Both the position numbers and the translations under genes were made by a program. A DNA stretch of 64,000 nt from an uncultured Bacilli bacterium. Lineage in GTDB: Bacteria > Bacillota_I > Bacilli_A > RF39 > UBA660. Where the stretch lies: NCBI GenBank assembly GCA_934101865.1, contig CAKOSA010000001.1:22235-86234 (forward strand). Direction: 5' to 3'. How positions within the stretch are numbered: the stretch's first letter is position 1; each line of letters begins with the position of its first letter. The notes under the pieces were generated by a model. The model searched no databases and was not told where the DNA came from. It saw only the letters and a list, made by a program, of their open reading frames with translations. Positions 1,549-39,649 of the stretch are shown here, in pieces.

Positions 1549-2756
1549 TGAAAATAGAAAAATTAAACCATAACGGTTTTGGTATCGGCTATATAGACGG
1601 TAAAGTAACTTTTGTAAAAAATACCCTAATAGGTGATGAAGTAGAAGTATTAATTACCAAAGAACATAAAACATATAATGAAGCAAAAGTAACAAAATAC
1701 TTAACCAAATCCCCATTACATAAAGTACCCATCTGTCCTTATGCAGATAAATGTGGTGGATGTACTTATCAAATGATGTCTTATGAAGAAGAATTATCCC
1801 AAAAACAAAAAGTAGTAGAGGAGCTATTAGGAAAAAAAGCCCAAATCATAAAATGCGATAACTATAATTACCGCAATAAAATAACCCTTAAAGTAAAGAA
1901 TGGTAAAATAGGCTTCTTTGCCGAAGGCACCCATAATCTAGTCAGTATAGATAAATGCTATTTATGTACAGAAAAAATAAATAAAATAATCAACGAGTTA
2001 CTAACTATCGACCTCTCTAACATCTATGAAATAACCATTAGAGAAGGCGAAGAAACCATAGTAATACTATATAATACAGGACCAACAAACGTAGATATAT
2101 CCCATTTAAAAAATGCCGATAATATCCTCTTGAAAGATGAAGATTATCACGTATTAAAAGGCAAATCATCCATAACCACTAACATTGGTAAGTACAAATA
2201 CATAATAGAAAAAGACAGTTTCTTTCAAGTCAACAAATACTTAACTCAAAAGCTCTACGATAAAGCTCTCGAATACCTCCATCCCCGTGATGACGATGTT
2301 CTTCTTGACCTCTATTGTGGAGCCGGAACCATTGGCATATACTTCGCATCCAGTGTAGAAAGAGTAATCGGTATTGAACTAAATGAATATTCCGTTGCCT
2401 CAGCTAATAAAAATAAAAATCTAAACAATATTCCCAATATAAATTTTATAAATGCAGATGTAGCCAAGGCCATAAATAAAGTGAAAATGGCCACCAAAGT
2501 AGTGGTCGACCCCCCACGTAAAGGCCTCGATAAAAACACCATAAACAACATTAAAAGACTGTACCCCGCCCGCATAATTTACATCTCCTGCAACGTGCAT
2601 ACCCTCGCCCGCGATATTAAACTGTTGGAAGATTTTTATACTTTGGAAAGTTACACTATCGTGGATATGTTTAAAGGTACATATCACACTGAGATTGTTT
2701 CTGTATTACAAAGAAAAGAAGAAGCGGAATTAATATGGAAAACAAATACAATCTAA
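1548..2756 (+). CDS. 23S rRNA (uracil-C5)-methyltransferase, RumA/RlmD family, with TRAM domain and a 4-Cys cluster
   Basis: N-terminal TRAM-like domain, Cys cluster (CPYADKCGGCTYQ), and a SAM-dependent methyltransferase fold (DLYCGAGTIG, PPRKG). The start overlaps the obg stop by 1 nt. Confidence 0.85.
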   Translation: MKIEKLNHNGFGIGYIDGKVTFVKNTLIGDEVEVLITKEHKTYNEAKVTKYLTKSPLHKVPICPYADKCGGCTYQMMSYEEELSQKQKVVEELLGKKAQIIKCDNYNYRNKITLKVKNGKIGFFAEGTHNLVSIDKCYLCTEKINKIINELLTIDLSNIYEITIREGEETIVILYNTGPTNVDISHLKNADNILLKDEDYHVLKGKSSITTNIGKYKYIIEKDSFFQVNKYLTQKLYDKALEYLHPRDDDVLLDLYCGAGTIGIYFASSVERVIGIELNEYSVASANKNKNLNNIPNINFINADVAKAINKVKMATKVVVDPPRKGLDKNTINNIKRLYPARIIYISCNVHTLARDIKLLEDFYTLESYTIVDMFKGTYHTEIVSVLQRKEEAELIWKTNTI

Positions 2757-3400
2757 CAAGAGAGCAAAATGTTTTTGTAGCCAAGAGAAACATTGTTGAC
2801 TATATATGGAAAAGTGCAAACCTAGAAGGAATTGCTGTTACCTATCCCGAGACGCAGGCCATTTACGATGGTGGCATAGTAAACGGATTAACAGTAGATA
2901 AAATAATAACCATAAATAATCTAAAATATGCGTGGGAGTTTATTTTAGAAAACAAAGACATAGAATACGATTATAAAGCATTATGTCAAATTCATAAACT
3001 AACCTGTGATAAATTAGTCCTAGACCAAAACTTGGGAAGAATAAGAACTACCCCCGTAAATATAGGTGGAACAACTTGGAAACCCCCATTTCCCATAGAA
3101 AGTCAAATAAAAGAAGAGCTAGAAACATTAATAAATGAAGAAACCAAAACTAAAACCGAAATAGCTCTTGATGTAATGTTGTGGATAATGCGAAGGCAAA
3201 TGTTCAAGGGTGGTAATAAAAGAGTGGCAATGCTCTTTGCTAATAAAATAATGATAGATAATGGCTGTGGCATAATAACCATATCACAAGATAATCAAAG
3301 CACTTTTTTTGAAAAATTAATCAAATACTATGAAACAGGTGACAACCAAGATATAAAAAACTGGCTCTATGAAACCAGTATCGACGGAATGAACCTATAA
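2735..3400 (+). CDS. Fic/Doc-family protein with a degenerate Doc-type motif (QMFKGGNKR) lacking the catalytic His
   Basis: Fic-fold-like sequence with MFKGGNKRVAML where Fic/Doc proteins carry HxFx(D/N)(A/G)NKR. The His position is Gln. Overlaps the end of the methyltransferase gene by 22 nt. Confidence 0.55.
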   Translation: MENKYNLTREQNVFVAKRNIVDYIWKSANLEGIAVTYPETQAIYDGGIVNGLTVDKIITINNLKYAWEFILENKDIEYDYKALCQIHKLTCDKLVLDQNLGRIRTTPVNIGGTTWKPPFPIESQIKEELETLINEETKTKTEIALDVMLWIMRRQMFKGGNKRVAMLFANKIMIDNGCGIITISQDNQSTFFEKLIKYYETGDNQDIKNWLYETSIDGMNL

Positions 3401-4426: not shown

Positions 4427-5191
4427 ATGAAAATACTCCTCAAAATAATATTAACCCTTTCCCTCATAACCCTAACCATAAGCATAATAACCCAAAACGT
4501 CGTCGTCACAACCCTCTCAAACGATATTGTTGCCAAGAAAATAACAGGCCTTGTCCTTGATAAAACCATAAACGATATCGATACCGATAAATTAGGATTA
4601 TTAGAACAAGCTCTTGTAAAAAGCGGTTATATAGAGAAAATAACCCAAAAATATATAGATAATGAAATAAACAATATCATAAATAATACCAATAATAAAA
4701 TCGATACAACTAACGATATAAATAATATGCTCGACGAGTATCTAACCGGTCTCGTCCCTAGCCAATCCTTAGAAGAAATAAAAGAATATGTAAACGAAAA
4801 AGCACTTACCATTAGAGACAATATTCAGTCGGCAAGTGACAATATGTTTAGTGAAAAGTATAAACCAGTTTTGCAAATTTATCGCACTCTAACTAGCAGT
4901 TTTTTAAAAACTGTAACCATAATATTGTCAATTTTAAGTGCATTTATACTAGTGATTTTAGAGAAAAAGAAAGTCGTAAAAACCTTCGCCCACATAAGTC
5001 TCATAATATCCCTCGTATCCCTAATAATGTACATAACCATATCCCTAGCATCTAACTACATAGACCAAAATATAATGGGAGGCCTCCTAAGCGAAATCAA
5101 CCTCAGCTTGCCCCTAACCCTCTTCATCACCCTCCTAATAGTATCAATAATCCTCATAGTCTTAAACAAAACCGCCCTAAAAGAGAATTAA
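4427..5191 (+). CDS. Hypothetical membrane protein
   Basis: N-terminal hydrophobic helix, Asn-rich linker and two or three C-terminal TM helices. No recognisable domain. Confidence 0.45.
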   Translation: MKILLKIILTLSLITLTISIITQNVVVTTLSNDIVAKKITGLVLDKTINDIDTDKLGLLEQALVKSGYIEKITQKYIDNEINNIINNTNNKIDTTNDINNMLDEYLTGLVPSQSLEEIKEYVNEKALTIRDNIQSASDNMFSEKYKPVLQIYRTLTSSFLKTVTIILSILSAFILVILEKKKVVKTFAHISLIISLVSLIMYITISLASNYIDQNIMGGLLSEINLSLPLTLFITLLIVSIILIVLNKTALKEN

Positions 5192-8010: not shown

Positions 8011-8730
8011 ATGAAGGTGAATATTATTAATGTATACAAAGAATTAATAAAAAAAGAAAATATATACAACTATACAAATATAACTATTTCTTATAATTCC
8101 AGTAAAATAGAAAATAGTTCTCTTTCTCTTGACGAAACCAAAGAAATATATTACACTCCTTTTCTAACCACTACTACTAATAAAGTAATTAACCTAGATG
8201 ACCTTATCGAAATGAAAAATCATTTCAAACTATTTGATTATTGCCTAAGCATAGTAGATGCCCCTCTAACCAAAGAAATAATAATAGAGATGAATAAAAT
8301 ACTAAAAAGAAATACAAGTGATGAAGACAATCCCCGTTACAACGTCGGTGGCTTTAAAACCATTCCCAATGTAATAGGAATAATAAATGTCATTCACACA
8401 TCATCTCCCGAAGACGTTGAAAAAGACCTAGATAACTTACTAAAAAGTTATCATAATAAACAAACAATAACCCTTGAAGACATAATATATTTTCACTACA
8501 ATTTTGAAAAAATACATCCCTTTGGTTATGGAAATGGCCGTGTAGGCCGTATGATAATGTTTAAAGAATGCCTAAAAAACAATATAATGCCCTTTATCGT
8601 CCTAGATAAAGACAAACCTTATTATATGAGAGGACTAAAAAATTATAATGAAGATAAAATGTTCCTCATAGATACCATAAAATATGAACAAGACCTATAC
8701 AAAAAAATAGTAACAGAAATGATAAACTAA
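8011..8730 (+). CDS. Fic-family protein (putative AMPylase/adenylyltransferase)
   Basis: Fic motif HPFGYGNGRVGR matches HPFx[D/E]GNGRxxR except that the acidic position is Tyr. Confidence 0.8.
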   Translation: MKVNIINVYKELIKKENIYNYTNITISYNSSKIENSSLSLDETKEIYYTPFLTTTTNKVINLDDLIEMKNHFKLFDYCLSIVDAPLTKEIIIEMNKILKRNTSDEDNPRYNVGGFKTIPNVIGIINVIHTSSPEDVEKDLDNLLKSYHNKQTITLEDIIYFHYNFEKIHPFGYGNGRVGRMIMFKECLKNNIMPFIVLDKDKPYYMRGLKNYNEDKMFLIDTIKYEQDLYKKIVTEMIN

Positions 8731-8843: not shown

Positions 8844-9881
8844 ATGGATAAAATAGGAAAAAATTTAAAAAAAATAAGATTACTAAAAAATCTTTCCCTT
8901 AAAGAGGCTGGCCAACTATTAGGAATGAGTGCCACCGCCATAAACAAATACGAAAAAGGATATTTAATACCAAACTCATCAAAAGTAATAGAATTTGCCA
9001 ATGCCTATAACGTAAATTGTATCGATATACTAAGAGTATACGAAGAACCAGAGTTAAAGTTTACATCATTTAAAAAGAATGAAAAATTAACCGAGAAAAA
9101 ATTAGAAGTTTTAAAAATGGTAATACAAGAAGAAGTAGCAAAATATTTAGAAGTCATAGAATTAAACTCAATAACTGCCCAAAATATCTCTCTAAGGAAA
9201 TACAAATGTAGTACACTAGAAGATGCTGAACAAGCCTCTAACAAATTTAGAGAACACATAAAACTATCAAGCAAATATCCCATATCAGATTTAATAAGCA
9301 TCCTTGAAAACCTAGGAATACTCATAATTGAACTAGAAGATAAAAATAACTACTATGAAGGGTTTGAAGGCTTTAGCGAAGTCGTAAACAACATACCCAT
9401 TATAGTTATGAAAGAAAACAGAACTGATGTCTGTAAATACAGATATACCTTAGCTCACGAACTTGCCCATCTAATTCTTAAAATAGAAAATCCCCAAGTT
9501 AACGAAGAAAAACTATGTGATAGGTTTGCTAGCAGTTTACTTATGCCCAAAGAAGCCGTAATAAACGAATTTGGAAATAATAGAAGAAACATAAGCATTT
9601 ATGAACTAGTAGTCTTTAAAATAGAATATAAAGTAAATTATAAAGATATAATAACAAGACTAAAAGAACTAAACATAATAACAGAATACCTATATAAAAA
9701 ATTAAGTACAAGTCATATTATAGATGAAGGAATAACCTTCCAACCCGAAGTATCACATCAGTTTAAAAAACTAGTTCATAAATTAGAAACTGATGATATA
9801 ATAACAATAAATAAAGCCTGTGAACTATTAGGAACTACTCCCAATGAATATAACCGAGAAAATAATAATTACAGATATTAA
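8844..9881 (+). CDS. XRE-family HTH regulator fused to an ImmA/IrrE (COG2856, DUF955) zinc-metallopeptidase domain
   Basis: N-terminal HTH_XRE (LKKIRLLKNLSLKEAGQLLGMSATAINKYEKG). The C-terminal domain carries HEXXH (YTLAHELAHLIL) in the ImmA/IrrE context. Preceded by a TTTACA - 17 - TGcTAAAAT promoter. Confidence 0.8.
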   Translation: MDKIGKNLKKIRLLKNLSLKEAGQLLGMSATAINKYEKGYLIPNSSKVIEFANAYNVNCIDILRVYEEPELKFTSFKKNEKLTEKKLEVLKMVIQEEVAKYLEVIELNSITAQNISLRKYKCSTLEDAEQASNKFREHIKLSSKYPISDLISILENLGILIIELEDKNNYYEGFEGFSEVVNNIPIIVMKENRTDVCKYRYTLAHELAHLILKIENPQVNEEKLCDRFASSLLMPKEAVINEFGNNRRNISIYELVVFKIEYKVNYKDIITRLKELNIITEYLYKKLSTSHIIDEGITFQPEVSHQFKKLVHKLETDDIITINKACELLGTTPNEYNRENNNYRY

Positions 9882-22850: not shown

Positions 22851-23699
22851 ATGATTAAAGGAAAACCATTTGTAAAGTGGGCCGGAGGAAAAAGACAAAT
22901 AATAGATAAATTAAAACAATATGTTCCCGATGAGTTTAATACTTATTATGAACCATTTATAGGTGGAGGAGCATTATTGTTTGAACTTTCGCCTAAAAAA
23001 GCCGTTATTAATGATTGCAATAAAGAACTGATGAATGTATATGAATGTATTAAAGATGAGAAAAAGTTTGAAGCAATGTGCCGAGAACTAAATCATCACG
23101 AAACCGAACATTCAGAAGAATATTATTACGAGATTAGAAACATTGATAGGGATAAAAAGAAATTTAATAAGTTAGCAGACTATAAAAGAGCAGCTCGTAC
23201 TATTTACTTAAACAAAGCTTGTTTTAATGGCTTATATAGAGTTAATAGTAACAATGAATTTAACGTACCATTTGGTAAAAAAACTAAGGTAAATACTTAT
23301 GAAGGACAAAATTTAGGTATTATTTGTGGATACTTAAATTATAATGACATTAAGCTATTATCAGTAGATTTTGAAGAGGCAGTAAAAGATGCAAAAAAAG
23401 GAGATTTTATTTATTTTGATCCACCTTATGATTCTGATACATCAACATTTAATAGTTATACCGAAGATGGTTTTGGCAAGGAAGAACAAAAACGCCTTGC
23501 CAAAGTATTTAAAGAACTATCTGATAGAGGCTGTTATGTGATGCTTTCTAATCATAACACAATATTAGTAAATGAATTATATAAAGATTTCAATATTCAT
23601 ATAATTGAAGCAAAGAGAAATATTAATGCTAATGGAAAGAAGAGAGGTGAAGTAGAAGAATTAATTATTACAAATTTTGAAAATAAAAGAGGATTTTAA
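22851..23699 (+). CDS. dpnM: DNA adenine methyltransferase, DpnM/Dam family (GATC, D12 class N6-adenine MTase)
   Basis: FVKWAGGKRQ SAM motif, DPPY motif (FIYFDPPY), and a C-terminal block YVMLSNHNTILVNELYKDFNIHIIEAKR. 282 aa. Strong similarity, from memory, to S. pneumoniae DpnM. Confidence 0.85.
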   Translation: MIKGKPFVKWAGGKRQIIDKLKQYVPDEFNTYYEPFIGGGALLFELSPKKAVINDCNKELMNVYECIKDEKKFEAMCRELNHHETEHSEEYYYEIRNIDRDKKKFNKLADYKRAARTIYLNKACFNGLYRVNSNNEFNVPFGKKTKVNTYEGQNLGIICGYLNYNDIKLLSVDFEEAVKDAKKGDFIYFDPPYDSDTSTFNSYTEDGFGKEEQKRLAKVFKELSDRGCYVMLSNHNTILVNELYKDFNIHIIEAKRNINANGKKRGEVEELIITNFENKRGF

Positions 23700-23731
23700 T
23701 AGTCAATGATGTATAATAAAGGAGGTAGTAT

Positions 23732-24499
23732 GTGAATAAAAAGTTTTATTATGAAGATAAAGATTTTAAACTCATACAAGGTGATTCTTTTAAAATATTA
23801 AAAGAAATAGAACCAAAAAGCATTGATATGATATTTGCTGACCCCCCTTATTTTTTATCCAGTGATGGTATTTCTTGTAGTGGCGGAAAAATGGTATCAG
23901 TAAATAAAGGTAATTGGGATAAATCTATCAGTATAGAAGAAAAACATAAATTTAATCGAAAGTGGATTAAACTATGCTATCATATATTAAAAGATAATGG
24001 TACTATTTGGATTAGCGGAACTATGCACAATATTTATTCAATAGGTATGGCATTGGAACAAGAAGGATTTAAAATAATAAATAATATAACTTGGAAAAAG
24101 TTAAATCCTCCACCAAATATTAGTTGTAGGGCATTTGTTCATTCCACTGAAACAATTCTATGGGCTAAAAAAAATTTAAAAAATTCCAAACACAAATTTA
24201 ATTATTCATTGATGAGAGAATTAAACGGGGATAAACAAATGAAAGATGTTTGGGAGTCATCACTCACTAAACCTAGTGAGAAAAAATGTGGTAAACATCC
24301 TACTCAAAAACCTATGGAAATATTAGAAAAAATTATATTATCATCAACAGATGAAGGTGATTTAATATTAGATCCATTTAATGGAAGCGGTACTACTGGA
24401 ATTGTTGCTAGTAGATTAAATAGAAAGTATATAGGTATCGAAAAAGAAAAAGAATATTTTGACTTAACAATAAGAAGAAAGGAAAGTGATATAAAATGA
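23732..24499 (+). CDS. dpnA: Second DNA N6-adenine methyltransferase of the DpnII system (DpnA-like, ssDNA-active in the pneumococcal system)
   Basis: MIFADPPYFLSSDG, WISGTMHNIYSIGMALEQEGFKI, KHPTQKP, and a GSGTTG motif. 255 aa, closely resembling pneumococcal DpnA as recalled. Confidence 0.8.
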   Translation: MNKKFYYEDKDFKLIQGDSFKILKEIEPKSIDMIFADPPYFLSSDGISCSGGKMVSVNKGNWDKSISIEEKHKFNRKWIKLCYHILKDNGTIWISGTMHNIYSIGMALEQEGFKIINNITWKKLNPPPNISCRAFVHSTETILWAKKNLKNSKHKFNYSLMRELNGDKQMKDVWESSLTKPSEKKCGKHPTQKPMEILEKIILSSTDEGDLILDPFNGSGTTGIVASRLNRKYIGIEKEKEYFDLTIRRKESDIK

Positions 24500-25389
24500 A
24501 ACGTGAATTTAATGATGTAATAAAAGGTCTAAAAAAGAGTATTACTCCAACTGATTTTTTTGTAGATTATCCTAAGGTATATTTAAATATAAAAGATTAT
24601 GAAAGACATTTAAATTTATTAAATAGTTTAATTGGTAAAGAAAATATTGAAGAAGAATTTATTGATTTAATATCCGAATATCCAGAAATAATGAAATCAA
24701 TTCCAATTCTTTTAGCAACCCACGAAACAAAATTTGATATTGTAAATGTTCCAACAATGACAATACTTGACAATATAAAAAATAGAAATTTTAATATTAT
24801 AGATGAACAATATATATGCTATGATTTTATTCAATTAAATCATCCTATTGAAGATTATGCTGAATTCTTAAAAAAGAGTGGTTTATTAGAATTGCTAAAA
24901 GATAAAAAGATTAAAAGCCTTGTTGATTATGCAATAGGAATAGAAGTAGGTATGGATACTAATGCTAGAAAATCTAGGTCTGGAAAAATAATGGAAACAA
25001 TAGTTGAAGAATATATTAAACTTTTAGATATTCAATATAATTGTCAAATGAAAAGTGCAAATATAGATAAGAAATATGGAACCAATTTATGTTCAATAGG
25101 TAAAGCAACTAAAAAGTTTGATTTTGTTTATAAAAGTAAAACTGATGGAAAAATAATAGTTATGGAAGTTAATTATTATGGAAAGCAAGGATCAAAACCA
25201 AATGAAACTGCAAAAAGCTATATTGAATTAAACAATAAAATAAAAGCAATTGATAATGTGAAATTTGTTTGGATAACTGACGGAAGAGGGTGGTTACCAT
25301 CTAAAACCAATTTAGAAGATGCTTATGATGAAATTGAATATTTATATACGCTTGAGGATTTAGAAAAAGGCATTTTAGAAAAAATATAA
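24496..25389 (+). CDS. dpnB: Type II restriction endonuclease, DpnII/MboI family (GATC-specific, cuts unmethylated DNA)
   Basis: 297 aa with GIEVGMDTN, KFDFV, EVNYYG..GSK.NETAKSY and FVWITDGRGW blocks typical of the DpnII/MboI REase family. Overlaps the dpnA-like gene by 4 nt. Confidence 0.75.
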   Translation: MKREFNDVIKGLKKSITPTDFFVDYPKVYLNIKDYERHLNLLNSLIGKENIEEEFIDLISEYPEIMKSIPILLATHETKFDIVNVPTMTILDNIKNRNFNIIDEQYICYDFIQLNHPIEDYAEFLKKSGLLELLKDKKIKSLVDYAIGIEVGMDTNARKSRSGKIMETIVEEYIKLLDIQYNCQMKSANIDKKYGTNLCSIGKATKKFDFVYKSKTDGKIIVMEVNYYGKQGSKPNETAKSYIELNNKIKAIDNVKFVWITDGRGWLPSKTNLEDAYDEIEYLYTLEDLEKGILEKI

Positions 25390-29496: not shown

Positions 29497-30117
29497 ATGA
29501 ATATAGATTTATACCAGTATGAAAAAGAATTATGGAATAAGAATATAAACTTAGTAGGAGGTATAGATGAAGTAGGAAGAGGACCCCTAATAGGACCCGT
29601 GGTAGCAGCTTGTGTAATATTACCAAAGGACTTTGTATTAGAAGGACTTACGGATTCAAAAAAATTATCCGAGAAGAAAAGAGAAAAGTTCTATGATGTA
29701 ATTATGGATAAAGCCATAGCGGTAGGAATAGGGCAAGCTAGTGAAAAAGTAATTGATGAAATAAATATCTATGAGGCAACTAAGGTAGCAATGAAAGAAG
29801 CGGTTCAAAACTGTAAAATAAAGCCTGAACATATCCTCGTTGATGCAATGCCCCTCTCCCTAGATGTTCCAACTACTTCGATAATAAAAGGCGATGCCAA
29901 GTCTATAACTATTGCCGCTGCCTCCGTAATTGCCAAAGTAACAAGGGACCGAATGCTCGTTGAACTAGATAAAAAGTACCCAATGTATGACTTGAAGCAC
30001 AACAAAGGGTATGGTACAAAAAAGCATATTGAGGCCCTACGGGAGTATGGAATAACAAAATACCATCGATTAAGCTTTGCCCCCGTTAAAGAGAATAGTT
30101 CTAAAATATTACCTTAA
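29497..30117 (+). CDS. rnhB: Ribonuclease HII
   Basis: GIDEVGRGPLIGPVVAACVILP active-site motif plus DSK and KGD blocks. 206 aa. Confidence 0.9.
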   Translation: MNIDLYQYEKELWNKNINLVGGIDEVGRGPLIGPVVAACVILPKDFVLEGLTDSKKLSEKKREKFYDVIMDKAIAVGIGQASEKVIDEINIYEATKVAMKEAVQNCKIKPEHILVDAMPLSLDVPTTSIIKGDAKSITIAAASVIAKVTRDRMLVELDKKYPMYDLKHNKGYGTKKHIEALREYGITKYHRLSFAPVKENSSKILP

Positions 30118-30236
30118 TACTTATCTATATATAATATAGATACCCCCAAAATGTTACATAACACTTGGTAGTAAATGATTATTTTATGTAACCACCCCTA
30201 ATCTAATTCCAAAGAACGTGAAGCGTATAGTTTTAA

Positions 30237-30280
30237 AAAAAGTTTTGCAAGAAAAAGTAACCTTGCAAAACTTTTTTAAA
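30237..30280. terminator. Bidirectional terminator between rnhB (+) and lexA (-)
   Basis: 13-bp perfect inverted repeat AAAGTTTTGCAAG ... CTTGCAAAACTTT, flanked by A-runs on one side and T-runs on the other. Confidence 0.65.
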
Positions 30281-30902
30281 ACTTTCTATATAATCCCACA
30301 ACCTTACCAACAATAACCGCCTTTTTAACAATAATCGGGTCATATTCAGGGTTATCAGTTTGAAGCCTATCAAAACCTCTCTCATTAAATAATCTTTTAA
30401 TTGTCGGCAAATTGTTCTTATCTAGGGCAACTACCATATCGCCGTCCTTAGCCTTTTCACATTTTTTAACAATAACAATATCACCACTCAGAATGCCACT
30501 ACCAACCATATCATCATTAATTTTCTGCATAGCATATACATCAACATCTTCATCCGCTAAATACGTTGGAATAGAGAAAATCTCATTTGGTGTATCAAGT
30601 TCAAGTAAGTAATTGCCATTACCCTCCTTAATTAAAGGAACATTAACAACCTCATCACTCTTTGTATCATATTCATTAGGAACCAAAAGTTCAATCGCCT
30701 TATTACCATAAGGATTTCTCTTAACATATCCCTTTTCAACAAGCCCCTTCAAATGAACGTGTATTGTCGCCGGAGAGTTTATACCAATAATTTCCCCAAT
30801 CTGTCTTACAGAAGGTGGATATTTGTTCTCCGCATAAAACTTCTTGATAACGGTAAGTACCTCTTTCTGTTTTTTTGTAAGTCCTATCGATTTTGTTCGC
30901 AT
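30276..30902 (-). CDS. lexA: LexA repressor (S24 peptidase family)
   Basis: N-terminal wHTH (LTKKQKEVLTVIKKFYAENKYPPSVRQIGEIIG), a C-terminal S24 domain with SGDIVIV...DGDMVVAL, and a Lys dyad partner. Start set to the second ATG (MRTKS), which has a GGGAGG RBS. Confidence 0.9.
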   Translation of the reverse strand: MRTKSIGLTKKQKEVLTVIKKFYAENKYPPSVRQIGEIIGINSPATIHVHLKGLVEKGYVKRNPYGNKAIELLVPNEYDTKSDEVVNVPLIKEGNGNYLLELDTPNEIFSIPTYLADEDVDVYAMQKINDDMVGSGILSGDIVIVKKCEKAKDGDMVVALDKNNLPTIKRLFNERGFDRLQTDNPEYDPIIVKKAVIVGKVVGLYRKF

Positions 30903-30930
30903 TAAAAATACCTCCCTAATTTTTTTCATT

Positions 30931-30966
30931 TGCTAATATAATAGCACATTTCTTTTGGTTTGTCAA
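30931..30966 (-). promoter_or_regulatory. lexA promoter (TTGACA - 17 - TATTAT, minus strand) with a TGCTA-N6-TAGCA dyad overlapping the -10
   Basis: On the minus strand the -35 is TTGACA (30961-30966) and the -10 is TATTAT (30938-30943). The near-palindrome TGCTAATATAATAGCA spans 30931-30946. No canonical CGAAC-N4-GTTCG Cheo box was seen nearby. Confidence 0.45.
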
Positions 30967-31078
30967 ACAAATGTTAAAGATTTATTAAAAGTTTTTTTCT
31001 TTCTTACTCATATTATCTAAGTATTGCCATACTTTTCCAAAAGTGCCCATAAATTAAGGGTTTTAAAGTCCCAAAAAT

Positions 31079-31199
31079 ATGCTGGAAATATGCTGGAATT
31101 ATGCAGATTTTCAAAAATTGTTGATCTCGCATTGCAGATTTTCAAAAACTGCAAGTCCAAACCAGCAGAAATTCAAAAATTGCACCATCACCCAAAGCA
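31079..31199. repeat. Tandem repeat block: two 11-bp ATGCTGGAAxT units, then three units at an exact 31-bp period starting GAxxTTCAAAAA(T/C)TG and ending GCA
   Basis: ATGCTGGAAAT / ATGCTGGAATT at 31079-31100. TTCAAAAA at 31110, 31141 and 31172. Units GATTTTCAAAAATTGTTGATCTCGCATTGCA, GATTTTCAAAAACTGCAAGTCCAAACCAGCA and GAAATTCAAAAATTGCACC... Confidence 0.7.
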
Positions 31200-31257
31200 A
31201 GGCCAAATAAACGAGCCCGCATCCTATCACAAAAAAAATCAAAAAATTTAGTTACCT

Positions 31258-31458
31258 CTCAAAGTAATGGACACTAATAAAATCAGTAAATATTATTCTC
31301 AAAGTAATGGAAATAGATATTCTCAAAGCAACGGAAACTATTTTTTCAAAGTGTCCATTACACTGATAATTAAGATGTTCCAAATGTTTTTTTATTTAGG
31401 CGTATTCTCAAAGTAATGGAAACTATTTTTTAAAGTGTTCATTACCCTGAGAATTAAG
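31258..31458. repeat. Four copies of ATTCTCAAAG(T/C)AA(T/C)GGAAA: two half-units and two full 55-bp imperfectly palindromic units
   Basis: Half-units at 31258-31274 and 31295-31316. Full units at 31319-31374 and 31404-31458 are about 88 % identical. The second unit has perfect outer arms ATTCTCAG/CTGAGAAT. Confidence 0.7.
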
Positions 31459-31484
31459 AAAATCAAAAAATTATCAAAAAATGG

Positions 31485-31513
31485 TTGACATATAAAAAGT
31501 AATAAGTTATAAT
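31485..31513 (+). promoter_or_regulatory. Consensus sigma-A promoter (TTGACA - 17 - TATAAT) for the 31580 ORF
   Basis: TTGACA at 31485-31490 and TATAAT at 31508-31513, immediately downstream of the palindromic repeat units. The leader contains the palindrome GTTATAAC twice. Confidence 0.55.
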
Positions 31514-31579
31514 GTTAGCAGTCACTGAAAAAGCAGTTATAATTAACGTATTGTTATAACAAAAAAAGGAGGAAAACGT

Positions 31580-32236
31580 ATGAATTATAATGAAATACTA
31601 ATAAAGTATATTGACAATTATCCCACAGATGAACCAATCTTTATCGAGGATATAAAAAGACACTTCGAAAGTGTTATGGAAGAAGAACTATTAAACAATA
31701 TTATTAAGGACATCTATGTCTATATAAATAGACTAGTAAAAGCAAACAAAGTAGAACAGTGTACCAAAGGTGTATACTATAAGGAAACAAAAAATAAAGA
31801 AAAAAGTAGAGAAATAGTTTCCCAAAAGACTATAAACAGAAAATACATTAAAGATGCTAACGGTCAGAAAGGGTACTACACAGGAATACATCTATTTAAC
31901 GAATTAGGCTTAACTAGTCAAACATCCCCAAAAATAATAATAGTAACAAATGAATGCCCCAACAATAACCACTATAAAAATAAAGGCTTAGGAGTAACTA
32001 TTAAAAGACCAAAAATAATTATCGATAACGATAATTGCAGATACCTAAAACTATTTGATGTATTAATAAATCGAGATAATGTCGAAATAGAAGTCTCAAA
32101 GAAACGCGAAAAAGAAATAATCTATAAATACATAAAAGATAACAAAATCGAGATGGAAAGACTATTTGAGTATGCCAACAAATTATACAATTTAAAGCCC
32201 ATTGAAAAATTATATGATATAAGTGGAGAAGAGTAA
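31580..32236 (+). CDS. Hypothetical protein; the N-terminus resembles an AbiEi-like wHTH (type IV TA antitoxin-type regulator), but no AbiEii partner is adjacent
   Basis: N-terminal pattern PIFIEDIKRHF...IYVYINRLVKANKVEQCTKGVYYK is reminiscent of AbiEi_4-type wHTH domains. GGAGG RBS. Downstream gene is convergent. Low-confidence family call. Confidence 0.35.
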   Translation: MNYNEILIKYIDNYPTDEPIFIEDIKRHFESVMEEELLNNIIKDIYVYINRLVKANKVEQCTKGVYYKETKNKEKSREIVSQKTINRKYIKDANGQKGYYTGIHLFNELGLTSQTSPKIIIVTNECPNNNHYKNKGLGVTIKRPKIIIDNDNCRYLKLFDVLINRDNVEIEVSKKREKEIIYKYIKDNKIEMERLFEYANKLYNLKPIEKLYDISGEE

Positions 32237-32246
32237 AACAATACCA

Positions 32247-33209
32247 TTACTTACCAAATAATTTACCTTGATAAGTATCTCTAATTACCATTTCCTTATC
32301 AATATCATTCATTACACTAACCTTTTTAACAATCCACTTTGGAGAAATAAGATTATCAATATCAGCATCAGATATAATGCGATGAATAACTATTCTAGGA
32401 TCAAGAATTTCCAGTTGTCTAATAACAATATCAATATACTCATCCTTAGATAAAATTTTAATATCACCATTATTATATAACTTTTCCAAAGGCGTATCCT
32501 TAAGGACCATCAAAGTATGAAATTTAACACCTTGAATATCAAGAGTATTAAGAAATTTAGCACTCTCTAACATCATATCCAAAGTCTCATTAGGAAGACC
32601 ATTAATAAGGTGAATAACCACATTAATACCCATTTTCCTAAGTCTCTTTACACAAGATGTAAATTCAAACAAAGTATGACCCCGATTAATAAATTTCCCC
32701 GTTTCTTCCCAAATACTTTGTAAACCCAATTCAACTACAATATAATATTTCTTACTAAGAACCTCTAAGTAATCAAGCACCTCATCACTTATACAATCAC
32801 ACCTCGTAGCAATCGCAAGCCCCATAACATCAGGTAAAGAAAGAATAGCCTCATATTTTTCCTTTAATACCGAAAGAGGAGCATAAGTATTACTTCGAGC
32901 CTGAAAATAACCAATATATTTCCCATTAGGCCATTTTCTGTCCATAACCTCTTTAACCTCATAAAACTGTTTTACTAAAGAGTGGGTAACATTACCAGCA
33001 AACTCTCCACTACCACTCTTTGAACAATAAATACAACCCCCATATCCCTTTGTACCATCCATATTAGGACAGCTAAATCCCCCATTAAGACTAATTTTCT
33101 TAATTTTAAAACCAAAATTAGTTTTATAAAAATAGTTAAGAGTATGGTATCTCTTATTATCTAAACTATATTTAAACATAAAAATCACCAAAAATATTCT
33201 ATCATACAA
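32247..33209 (-). CDS. Radical SAM protein, TIGR01212 (YhcC/YtqA-like) family
   Basis: CPNMDGTKGYGGCIYCS cluster near the N-terminus, characteristic of the TIGR01212 radical-SAM family. 320 aa. Confidence 0.75.
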   Translation of the reverse strand: MYDRIFLVIFMFKYSLDNKRYHTLNYFYKTNFGFKIKKISLNGGFSCPNMDGTKGYGGCIYCSKSGSGEFAGNVTHSLVKQFYEVKEVMDRKWPNGKYIGYFQARSNTYAPLSVLKEKYEAILSLPDVMGLAIATRCDCISDEVLDYLEVLSKKYYIVVELGLQSIWEETGKFINRGHTLFEFTSCVKRLRKMGINVVIHLINGLPNETLDMMLESAKFLNTLDIQGVKFHTLMVLKDTPLEKLYNNGDIKILSKDEYIDIVIRQLEILDPRIVIHRIISDADIDNLISPKWIVKKVSVMNDIDKEMVIRDTYQGKLFGK

Positions 33210-39589: not shown

Positions 39590-39649
39590 TTGCATTATCT
39601 ATAACAAATGTGTTAAAATATATATAAACACGAAAGGAGTGTATTACAA

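Follow-up and report, generated by a model that had tools for sequence, protein, structure and literature searches.

Three phased near-palindromic repeats between lexA and an AbiEi-like gene in an uncultured gut Bacilli lineage: a possible operator array

Ss-LrpB recognizes the consensus TTGYAW-N-WTRCAA, and Lrp from E. coli the consensus YAGHAWATTWTDCTR. Imperfect palindromic sites clustered two or three helical turns apart represent a known binding mode of the Lrp family (PMC2995911). Arrays of repeated operators are also used by AbiEi and Rv2827c, both of which bind 23-bp repeats (four of them, spread over 131 bp, in the case of Rv2827c) and achieve autoregulation through cooperative binding (PMC7319586). 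A different kind of periodic DNA is found in TIGR arrays, whose units of ~36 nt, usually 5–15 in number, contain two alternating repeats of 8–12 nt and spacers of 9 nt (PMC12045711).

We analyzed a periodic block in a stretch of 64,000 nucleotides from an uncultured Bacilli bacterium, referred to here at its full length as the window. The window is ordinary chromosome, carrying obg, dnaG, sigA, gyrB, uvrB, mutS, pyk, glyA, and spore-coat genes. It also contains a DpnII-type restriction-modification cassette at 22851-25389, made up of a D12-class N6-adenine methyltransferase, a second N6/N4 methyltransferase, and a DpnII endonuclease, as well as two Fic/DOC-domain genes and a fused XRE-HTH/M78 (ImmA/IrrE-like) gene (2735-3400, 8011-8730, and 8844-9881) that may be remnants of toxin-antitoxin systems or mobile elements.

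The orthologous locus was recovered from many human-gut metagenomes by exact-protein look-ups, and the array was found only in three related lineages that share the divergent arrangement of lexA and the AbiEi-like gene ORF218. Lineage A comprises the window, L005, L006, and L058; lineage B comprises L007-L016, L059, L060, and L062; and lineage C comprises L017, L018, and L049, with LexA and ORF218 proteins that are 88% and 78% identical, respectively, to those of the window.

Three near-palindromic units at an exact 31-bp period

The first-pass annotation of this DNA described two 11-mers followed by three units with a 31-bp period upstream of lexA, and the repeat proved to be real and non-random. 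A repeat search of the 64-kb window placed the three units at 31101-31185, with start-to-start spacings of exactly 31 and 31 bp, in the form of three 19-nt copies (TGCAGATTTTCAAAAATTG at 31102-31120, TGCAGATTTTCAAAAACTG at 31133-31151, and AGCAGAAATTCAAAAATTG at 31164-31182). The motif TTCAAAAAYTG occurs three times in the window, always within the block, against 0.16 occurrences expected (0 of 100 shuffles reached three), and the 19-mer, allowing up to three mismatches, gives six matches against 0.08 expected. The sole 19-mer match outside the block is a near-perfect palindrome at 4895-4915 (AGCAGTTTTTTAAAAACTGTA) that resembles the unit consensus and lies within an uncharacterized 254-aa ORF (4427-5191), ~340 bp upstream of a Sua5/TsaC gene. 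Searches of the 64-kb window with a PWM and with nhmmer returned this one array and this one isolated site within a gene, and nothing further.

Each unit is a near-palindrome, a property that the earlier reader had overlooked. The consensus TTGCAGATTTTCAAAAACTGCAA, drawn from 12 units of all lineages and sources, is self-complementary at 20 of 23 positions, so the true unit is better described as a dyad-symmetric box of ~23 bp, with gaps of 8 bp between boxes, following the pattern TTGCAG-WTTTT-S-AAAAW-CTGCAA. Unit 2 is the best palindrome, being the same as the family consensus and matched on both strands; unit 1 has a good left half-site and a weaker right one; and unit 3 is the most degenerate in every lineage and varies within lineage B. 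The units and their surroundings comprise the following features.

30276..30902, minus strand: lexA, 208 aa (TIGR00498 equivalog, above the cut-off)
30938..30975, minus strand: lexA promoter and LexA box, TTGACA-17-TATTAT (30966-30938) with extended TG, 96–100% conserved in all lineages
31075..31104, no strand: 11-bp tandem repeat, 2.7 copies (Tandem Repeats Finder)
31101..31123, plus strand: unit 1, ATGCAGATTTTCAAAAATTGTTG (PWM score 27.8, nhmmer match)
31132..31154, plus strand: unit 2, TTGCAGATTTTCAAAAACTGCAA (PWM score 31.9; nhmmer E = 3.6e-4)
31163..31185, plus strand: unit 3, CAGCAGAAATTCAAAAATTGCAC (repeat search, PWM)
31249..31472, no strand: 224-bp insertion with palindromic sub-units, only in lineage A and absent in B and C (repeat search, alignment)
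31485..31543, plus strand: two tandem sigma-A-type promoters of ORF218, TTGACA-17-TATAAT (12/12) and TTAGCA-17-TATAAT
31580..32236, plus strand: ORF218, AbiEi-like (DUF6088) winged-HTH protein (weak DUF6088 match; homologues carry PF19570)

A GATC in the spacer of unit 1 is present in the window and absent in L005 and L006. The two 11-mers (ATGCTGGAAAT at 31079-31089 and ATGCTGGAATT at 31090-31100) are present as first described but do not form an independent element, having arisen from unit 1 by slippage, which duplicated its 5' end (ATGCAGNNNTT) and brought the first 11 nt to three copies. This duplication is confined to lineage A: B and C align with a gap of 22 bp where the 11-mers stand in A, and L005 reads ATGCAGGAATT ATGCAGAAATT ATGCAGATTTT at the same place.

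On the right of the array, homologues of ORF218 at 57–62% identity stand directly upstream of AbiEii toxin genes; no AbiEii toxin gene lies downstream of ORF218 itself, and the next gene is a convergent MnmL/YtqA radical-SAM gene. ORF218 is by these comparisons an orphan AbiEi-like antitoxin or regulator, since it lacks the toxin gene that its homologues precede, and it may be a domesticated regulator. The window and lineage B have the same ORF218 protein (100% identity), and its promoter and leader region is 89–100% conserved across lineages; within the leader, GTTATAA...TTATAAC is the likely operator of ORF218 itself. In lineage A, the 224-bp insertion stands between the array and the ORF218 promoter, flanked by 17-nt direct repeats (31232-31248 and 31456-31472). 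It contains the sub-unit TCTCAAAGTAATGGAAAC and its inverted copy, with sub-units of the form ATTCTCAAAGTAATGGAAAC ... GTGTTCATTACCCTGAGAAT (21-nt arms, 9-nt loop) whose copy number differs among the window, L005, and L006, and in this structure it looks like a MITE or integrative mini-element. The sub-unit occurs nowhere else in the 64-kb window, and its exact matches in viral contigs fall only in apparently coding parts of unrelated, higher-GC phage sequence.

The ORF call at 31024-31251, considered non-coding in the first-pass annotation, is indeed so: it has no Pfam or NCBIfam match, its units fall in three different frames owing to the 31-bp period, and no frame survives a 22-bp indel that separates the lineages. 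We also rejected the small ORFs of either strand, among them one at 31111-31242 on the minus strand that would encode a hydrophobic 43-aa product, as their frames differ between lineages. In addition, an Rfam search of 29500-33000 gave no match to the block, returning only sub-threshold miRNA-like matches on the terminator hairpin of rnhB/lexA; neither strand of 31040-31250 gave a folding signal (z = -0.79 and +0.20); a promoter and terminator scan of the block found none conserved inside it, the minus-strand TTGAAA matches being weak (9/12); and blastn of the block against plasmids and phages found nothing meaningful. The hairpin, at 30228-30290 between the convergent 3' ends of rnhB and lexA, is probably a bidirectional terminator and was not called by the terminator scan. 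An origin of replication (gyrB is 3.5 kb away) was rejected as well, as nearly all window genes are co-directional and their orientation does not switch at the block.

Lineages and a second promoter

Three units are present at the orthologous position in each of lineages A, B, and C, with spacings of 31 and 31 bp in A and B and of 31 and then about 35 bp in C, where unit 2 carries a 2-nt central insertion that accounts for the longer second spacing. The array is, to judge from the aligned lineages, older than the A/B/C split. Within each lineage the units are 84–95% alike and their spacers are unrelated, at the random level; the persistence of alike units beside random-level spacers after ~50% neutral divergence excludes the neutral decay of an old tandem duplication.

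Comparison of lineages A and C shows identity at 43 of 57 motif positions (75%) and at 8 of 24 spacer positions (33%; Fisher p = 8e-4), with four-fold sites 42–60% identical between the window and C (lexA, rnhB, and ORF218). This excess of motif identity over both the spacers and the four-fold sites (~50%) indicates that motif and spacing are maintained, if weakly, over the A-C distance. Between the closer lineages, drift appears near-neutral. The units of A and B differ at 10 of 57 positions and their spacers at 6 of 24, against 22–32% at four-fold sites (68–78% identical between the window and B in lexA and rnhB), and the block as a whole, 76–77% identical between A and B, behaves neutrally. 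There are no indels between A and B inside the 93-bp array, and the flanks carry indels of 22, 6, and 224 bp; conservation reaches 89–100% in the promoters of lexA and ORF218 and in the ORF218 leader, unlike in the intervening 250 bp. Polymorphisms occur inside units, in unit 1 of L006 and in units 2 and 3 of L059 (lineage B), the latter with spacer 2 unchanged. Some substitutions are common to several units, namely A>C at position 12 (units 1 and 2) and G>A at position 2 (units 2 and 3) in lineage B and TGTAAC in all lineage-C units, an excess that a rough hand estimate finds statistically uncompelling.

The window has a mosaic structure. Its identity to lineage A (L005/L006) is ~99%, and to B ~92%, on the left of about 31000; on the right of about 31500 the relationship is reversed, with a 99–100% match to L007-L016. 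These matches indicate a recombinant of two ~92%-identical lineages, with the switch inside or near ORF218 (~31500-31800).

We scanned metagenomes with the pattern TGCARWTTYNCMAAAAYTG-N12-TRCAGATTTT, which has about 24 specified bases and for which we estimate about 0.02 chance matches, even for a database that is AT-rich throughout. The scan matched two lineage-B orthologues and one new locus, L061.

2977-3050 of metagenome contig SAMEA104315424__coassemble_518: motif pair of L061 (pattern scan)

A deoD-like gene and two M16-peptidase genes border the 108-bp intergenic spacer that contains the motif pair, which immediately precedes the M16-peptidase operon promoter. Its two sites, TTGCAATTTTTCAAAAACTGCAA and TGCAGATTTTCAAAAAAATAAG, are 31 bp apart and separated by a spacer unrelated to those of the window, and the half-site AAAAACTGCAA overlaps the -35 of the promoter TTTAAA-17-TACTAT. 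L061 very probably comes from the same species complex as the window, as indicated by protein clusters rather than by sequence: those of the window's GyrB and MiaB-like proteins and the 90%-identity cluster of L061's M16 peptidase all have a member on a contig of one identical length (1,377,830 bp). No AbiEi-like gene is found near the M16 operon of L061. At the same locus, L066 (93% protein identity) has a partly degraded copy with eight motif changes and none in the spacers, and L063/L064 (69% identity) have a 49-bp spacer with the same promoter and no array.

The distances from unit starts to the -35 are 96/127/158 bp in lineage B, 74/105 bp in lineage C, and 22/53 bp in L061, all within about 1.5 bp of whole helical turns, and the insertion in lineage A shifts them by about half a turn. 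These three independent arrangements are suggestive of phasing to the -35 (roughly p = 0.08 by estimate).

Other scans returned candidates that we rejected. A two-unit scan of genome and viral contigs gave a match in L001 that was attributed to chance on its sequence, a low-complexity repeat in L002, and a duplication inside a phage ORF in L003 and L004, and a single-palindrome scan of viral contigs gave 18 solitary sites, which we took for chance matches in view of their number and isolation.

A possible operator array and alternative readings

The block is real, non-coding DNA of a conventional cis-regulatory kind. We give a probability of about 45% to its being a phased operator array for a dimeric DNA-binding protein encoded at an unlinked locus, tied to the rightward promoter of ORF218 and not to lexA; of this, the binding by a protein, its cooperativity, the promoter acted on, and the direction of the effect are inferred. 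Three imperfect 23-bp palindromic operators, with centres 31 bp or about three helical turns apart, would be occupied cooperatively by dimers of one sequence-specific protein. The near-palindromic units are as expected for the operator of a dimeric HTH protein, and because 31 bp is close to three turns, the dimers could share one face of the helix. The binding protein would be encoded elsewhere in the small (~1.38 Mb) genome, and the array would act on the ORF218 promoter. In lineage A, the 224-bp insertion has lengthened the distance between array and promoter by about 225 bp and shifted the two out of helical phase, which may leave them partly uncoupled in the window's own lineage. Of the functions proposed in the first-pass annotation, regulator sites on the same helix face are the best-supported reading, given the exact spacing in lineages with random-level spacers and the recurrence of the pair upstream of another promoter.

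Several observations count against an operator array. It overlaps neither of the promoters on its flanks, from both of which it stands at distances that differ by lineage; conservation of the motif at short range is no better than that of its surroundings (A vs. B, L059, and L066); and a second array is lacking from the 64 kb. No regulator gene other than ORF218 and lexA lies near the block among the window genes scanned, and none of these genes belongs to the Lrp family. The box recognized by CodY is the 15-bp AATTTTCWGAAAATT; the best hand alignment of the block to it reaches 11/15 and misses the central G, and the TGCAG/CTGCA arms fall outside the CodY motif. In hand comparisons with consensus sequences, none of sigma-54 (-24/-12), ECF -35, ComK, NrdR, ArgR, RocR-UAS, difSL, and DnaA-box fits.

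The position of the block upstream of lexA, 136 bp from its -35 in the window, would agree with a part in SOS control, as extra LexA operators or as an upstream activating region of lexA, but this explanation is largely refuted and we hold it to be very improbable. The LexA box of Firmicutes is a palindrome with a GAAC-N4-GTTC core found in the promoters of SOS genes. Boxes that read as canonical Firmicute-type SOS boxes (AACAAATGT) are located at the lexA promoter (AACAAATGTT at 30966-30975, an element separate from the block) and, with the same core (AACAAATGTG), in the spacer of the uvrB promoter at 39603-39612. The block units lack this core, including its inner AAC-N4-GTT, and this difference in sequence excludes LexA as their binder. 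Furthermore, LexA orthologues at 60–63% identity, whose divergent neighbours differ from the window's, have upstream regions of 168–197 bp without the block; the array is therefore not a general feature of lexA regulation, and the link to lexA that was drawn initially is not supported. The distance from the block to the lexA -35 also differs by lineage (about 136, 114, and 92 bp by hand count on the alignment), and the SOS response has nothing to do with the second locus. Conserved and variable segments alternating at a fixed period would also fit an array of guide RNAs (mini-CRISPR or TIGR) or of replicon elements (plasmid-type iterons), yet this possibility is already refuted, with next to no probability left to it. 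As the first-pass annotation recognized, the block is not CRISPR, in which repeats of about 23–50 bp alternate with strain-specific, acquired spacers of much the same length: the units measure 19–23 bp and the spacers 8–12 bp, the spacers are orthologous in A and B and drift slowly between lineages (11 of 12 positions of spacer 2 match between A and B) rather than being newly acquired, and no cas gene is present among the neighbours (lexA, RNase HII, DUF6088, and MnmL/MiaB-like radical-SAM genes) or the other window genes scanned. The geometry also differs from that of a TIGR array, with one contiguous 19–23-nt repeat per 31-bp unit and only three units, and Pfam scans of the flanking genes found no Nop-domain Tas gene. 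Iterons are direct repeats beside an initiator (rep) gene on a replicon or integrated element, and the iteron-like sites suggested at first have no support: no rep gene adjoins the block, chromosomal synteny is conserved in >20 metagenomic contigs, and there is no plasmid or phage similarity. The block also shows neither RNA structure nor an Rfam match. Autoregulation of ORF218, with the units serving as extra upstream operators, would follow the example of AbiEi-type antitoxins, which bind 23-bp repeats as monomers and autoregulate. The unit has that same length of 23 bp, the array lies upstream of the AbiEi-like gene in A, B, and C (immediately so in B and C), and regulators commonly autoregulate. 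We nevertheless consider it quite improbable. The putative recognition region of ORF218 (IYVYINRLVK..K..Q..KG.YYK) is nearly invariant relative to toxin-linked paralogues, and by PWM the paralogous loci lack the block motif; in its place, inverted repeats of 30 nt form a pair that covers their -10 and leader, and the ORF218 leader has kept the core of these repeats (ATGTTA... / ...TTATAACA). On this combination of findings, ORF218 most likely binds its own leader and not the block. Moreover, no AbiEi-like gene lies near the M16 locus, the array does not overlap a promoter as known AbiEi operators do, and no block-like sites were found by PWM or nhmmer at any of the other DUF6088/AbiEii loci and distant lexA loci scanned.

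Two further explanations dispense with a binding protein. The units could belong to a small dispersed palindromic repeat, REP/BIME- or MITE-like, that is decaying and whose regulatory role is absent or incidental, which we regard as unlikely. They are imperfect palindromes able to form hairpins of 9–10 bp, their short clusters stand in two intergenic regions of one species complex that are unrelated to each other, their presence is patchy (none at the M16 locus of L063/L064 or upstream of lexA in distant relatives), they drift about neutrally between close lineages, and lineage A has a second palindromic insertion at a distance of 50 bp. REP/BIME or MITE families have many dispersed copies, typically at the 3' ends of genes, with conserved linkers or with TIRs and target-site duplications. 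In the available sequence we know of two array loci (the window and L061) and one isolated site, and the linkers are not conserved; a mobilized multi-unit element would carry its spacers along, and spacers that are unrelated within and between loci, although the spacing is exactly 31 bp, thus count against such an origin. REP-type elements are rare between divergent promoters, which is where the window array is found; the 64 kb contain a single array; over the A-C distance, the motif has been kept at more than the neutral level; and no RAYT or IS200-like gene is among the window genes scanned. A non-functional, drifting remnant, whether of an old 31-bp tandem triplication or of AT-rich slippage, is improbable in our view. 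Slippage does operate here, as the 11-mer triplication of lineage A demonstrates, A-B divergence is close to neutral, and polymorphisms fall inside units; however, the units remain 84–95% alike with random spacers though neutral sites have diverged by ~50% since the A/B/C split, and local slippage would not be expected to produce the motif pair independently, with an unchanged spacing, at a second locus. A broader interpretation, which we view as rather unlikely, is that the arrays mark the regulon of a clade-specific global regulator, reaching an orphan AbiEi-like gene and an M16 operon in an uncultured, spore-forming lineage of gut Bacilli with a small genome (~1.38 Mb), or else that they are intergenic palindromes of a new family that propagate themselves and owe their phased 31-bp spacing to the way in which they insert.

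Should the block be a real operator cluster, three in-phase copies of TTGCAGATTTTCAAAAACTGCAA would provide a DNA bait for the regulator of an abundant uncultured human-gut bacterium, and the array would reveal how the host's regulation takes in an orphan antitoxin-like gene, with the 224-bp insertion of lineage A as a natural test of distance and helical phase. Contrary to the first suggestion, the block has no bearing on lexA/SOS control.

Comparison with described operator and repeat families

The block shares with the lambda OR1-3 region the presence of three pseudo-palindromic operators between divergent regulator genes, one of which encodes an S24-peptidase repressor. The spacing in lambda is 23–24 bp, in contrast to 31 bp here, the units of the block overlap neither promoter, and the lexA gene here is a host gene in a conserved chromosomal context. 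Like REP/BIME elements, the block consists of short imperfect palindromes that are regularly spaced, intergenic, and patchy among close relatives; it differs from them in its low copy number in the available sequence, its non-conserved spacers, its location between divergent promoters, and the lack of a RAYT gene.

AbiEi/Rv2827c operators are 23-bp repeats in arrays of two to four upstream of a gene for an AbiEi-like wHTH protein, as is the block (PMC7319586). Known AbiEi operators overlap the promoter and form inverted pairs 3 or 13 bp apart, whereas the block has direct units, each a palindrome in itself, which are separated by 8 bp and lie upstream of the -35, and no toxin gene accompanies them.

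The block is also like the Lrp/AsnC (FFRP) clusters, such as the Ss-LrpB control region and the Lrp sites of E. coli, in which two to six AT-centred boxes lie on one face of the helix: it has three boxes spaced by 31 and 31 bp, with the same spacing at L061. Its outer half-site (TTGCA...TGCAA) and its CAG...CTG arms resemble the consensuses of Ss-LrpB and E. coli Lrp. Lrp boxes are 15 bp long, and those of the block are longer, at 21–23 bp (CAG-N11-CTG). The likeness would thus concern the way in which the array works, as a cluster of phased palindromic sites, rather than the family to which its binding protein belongs.
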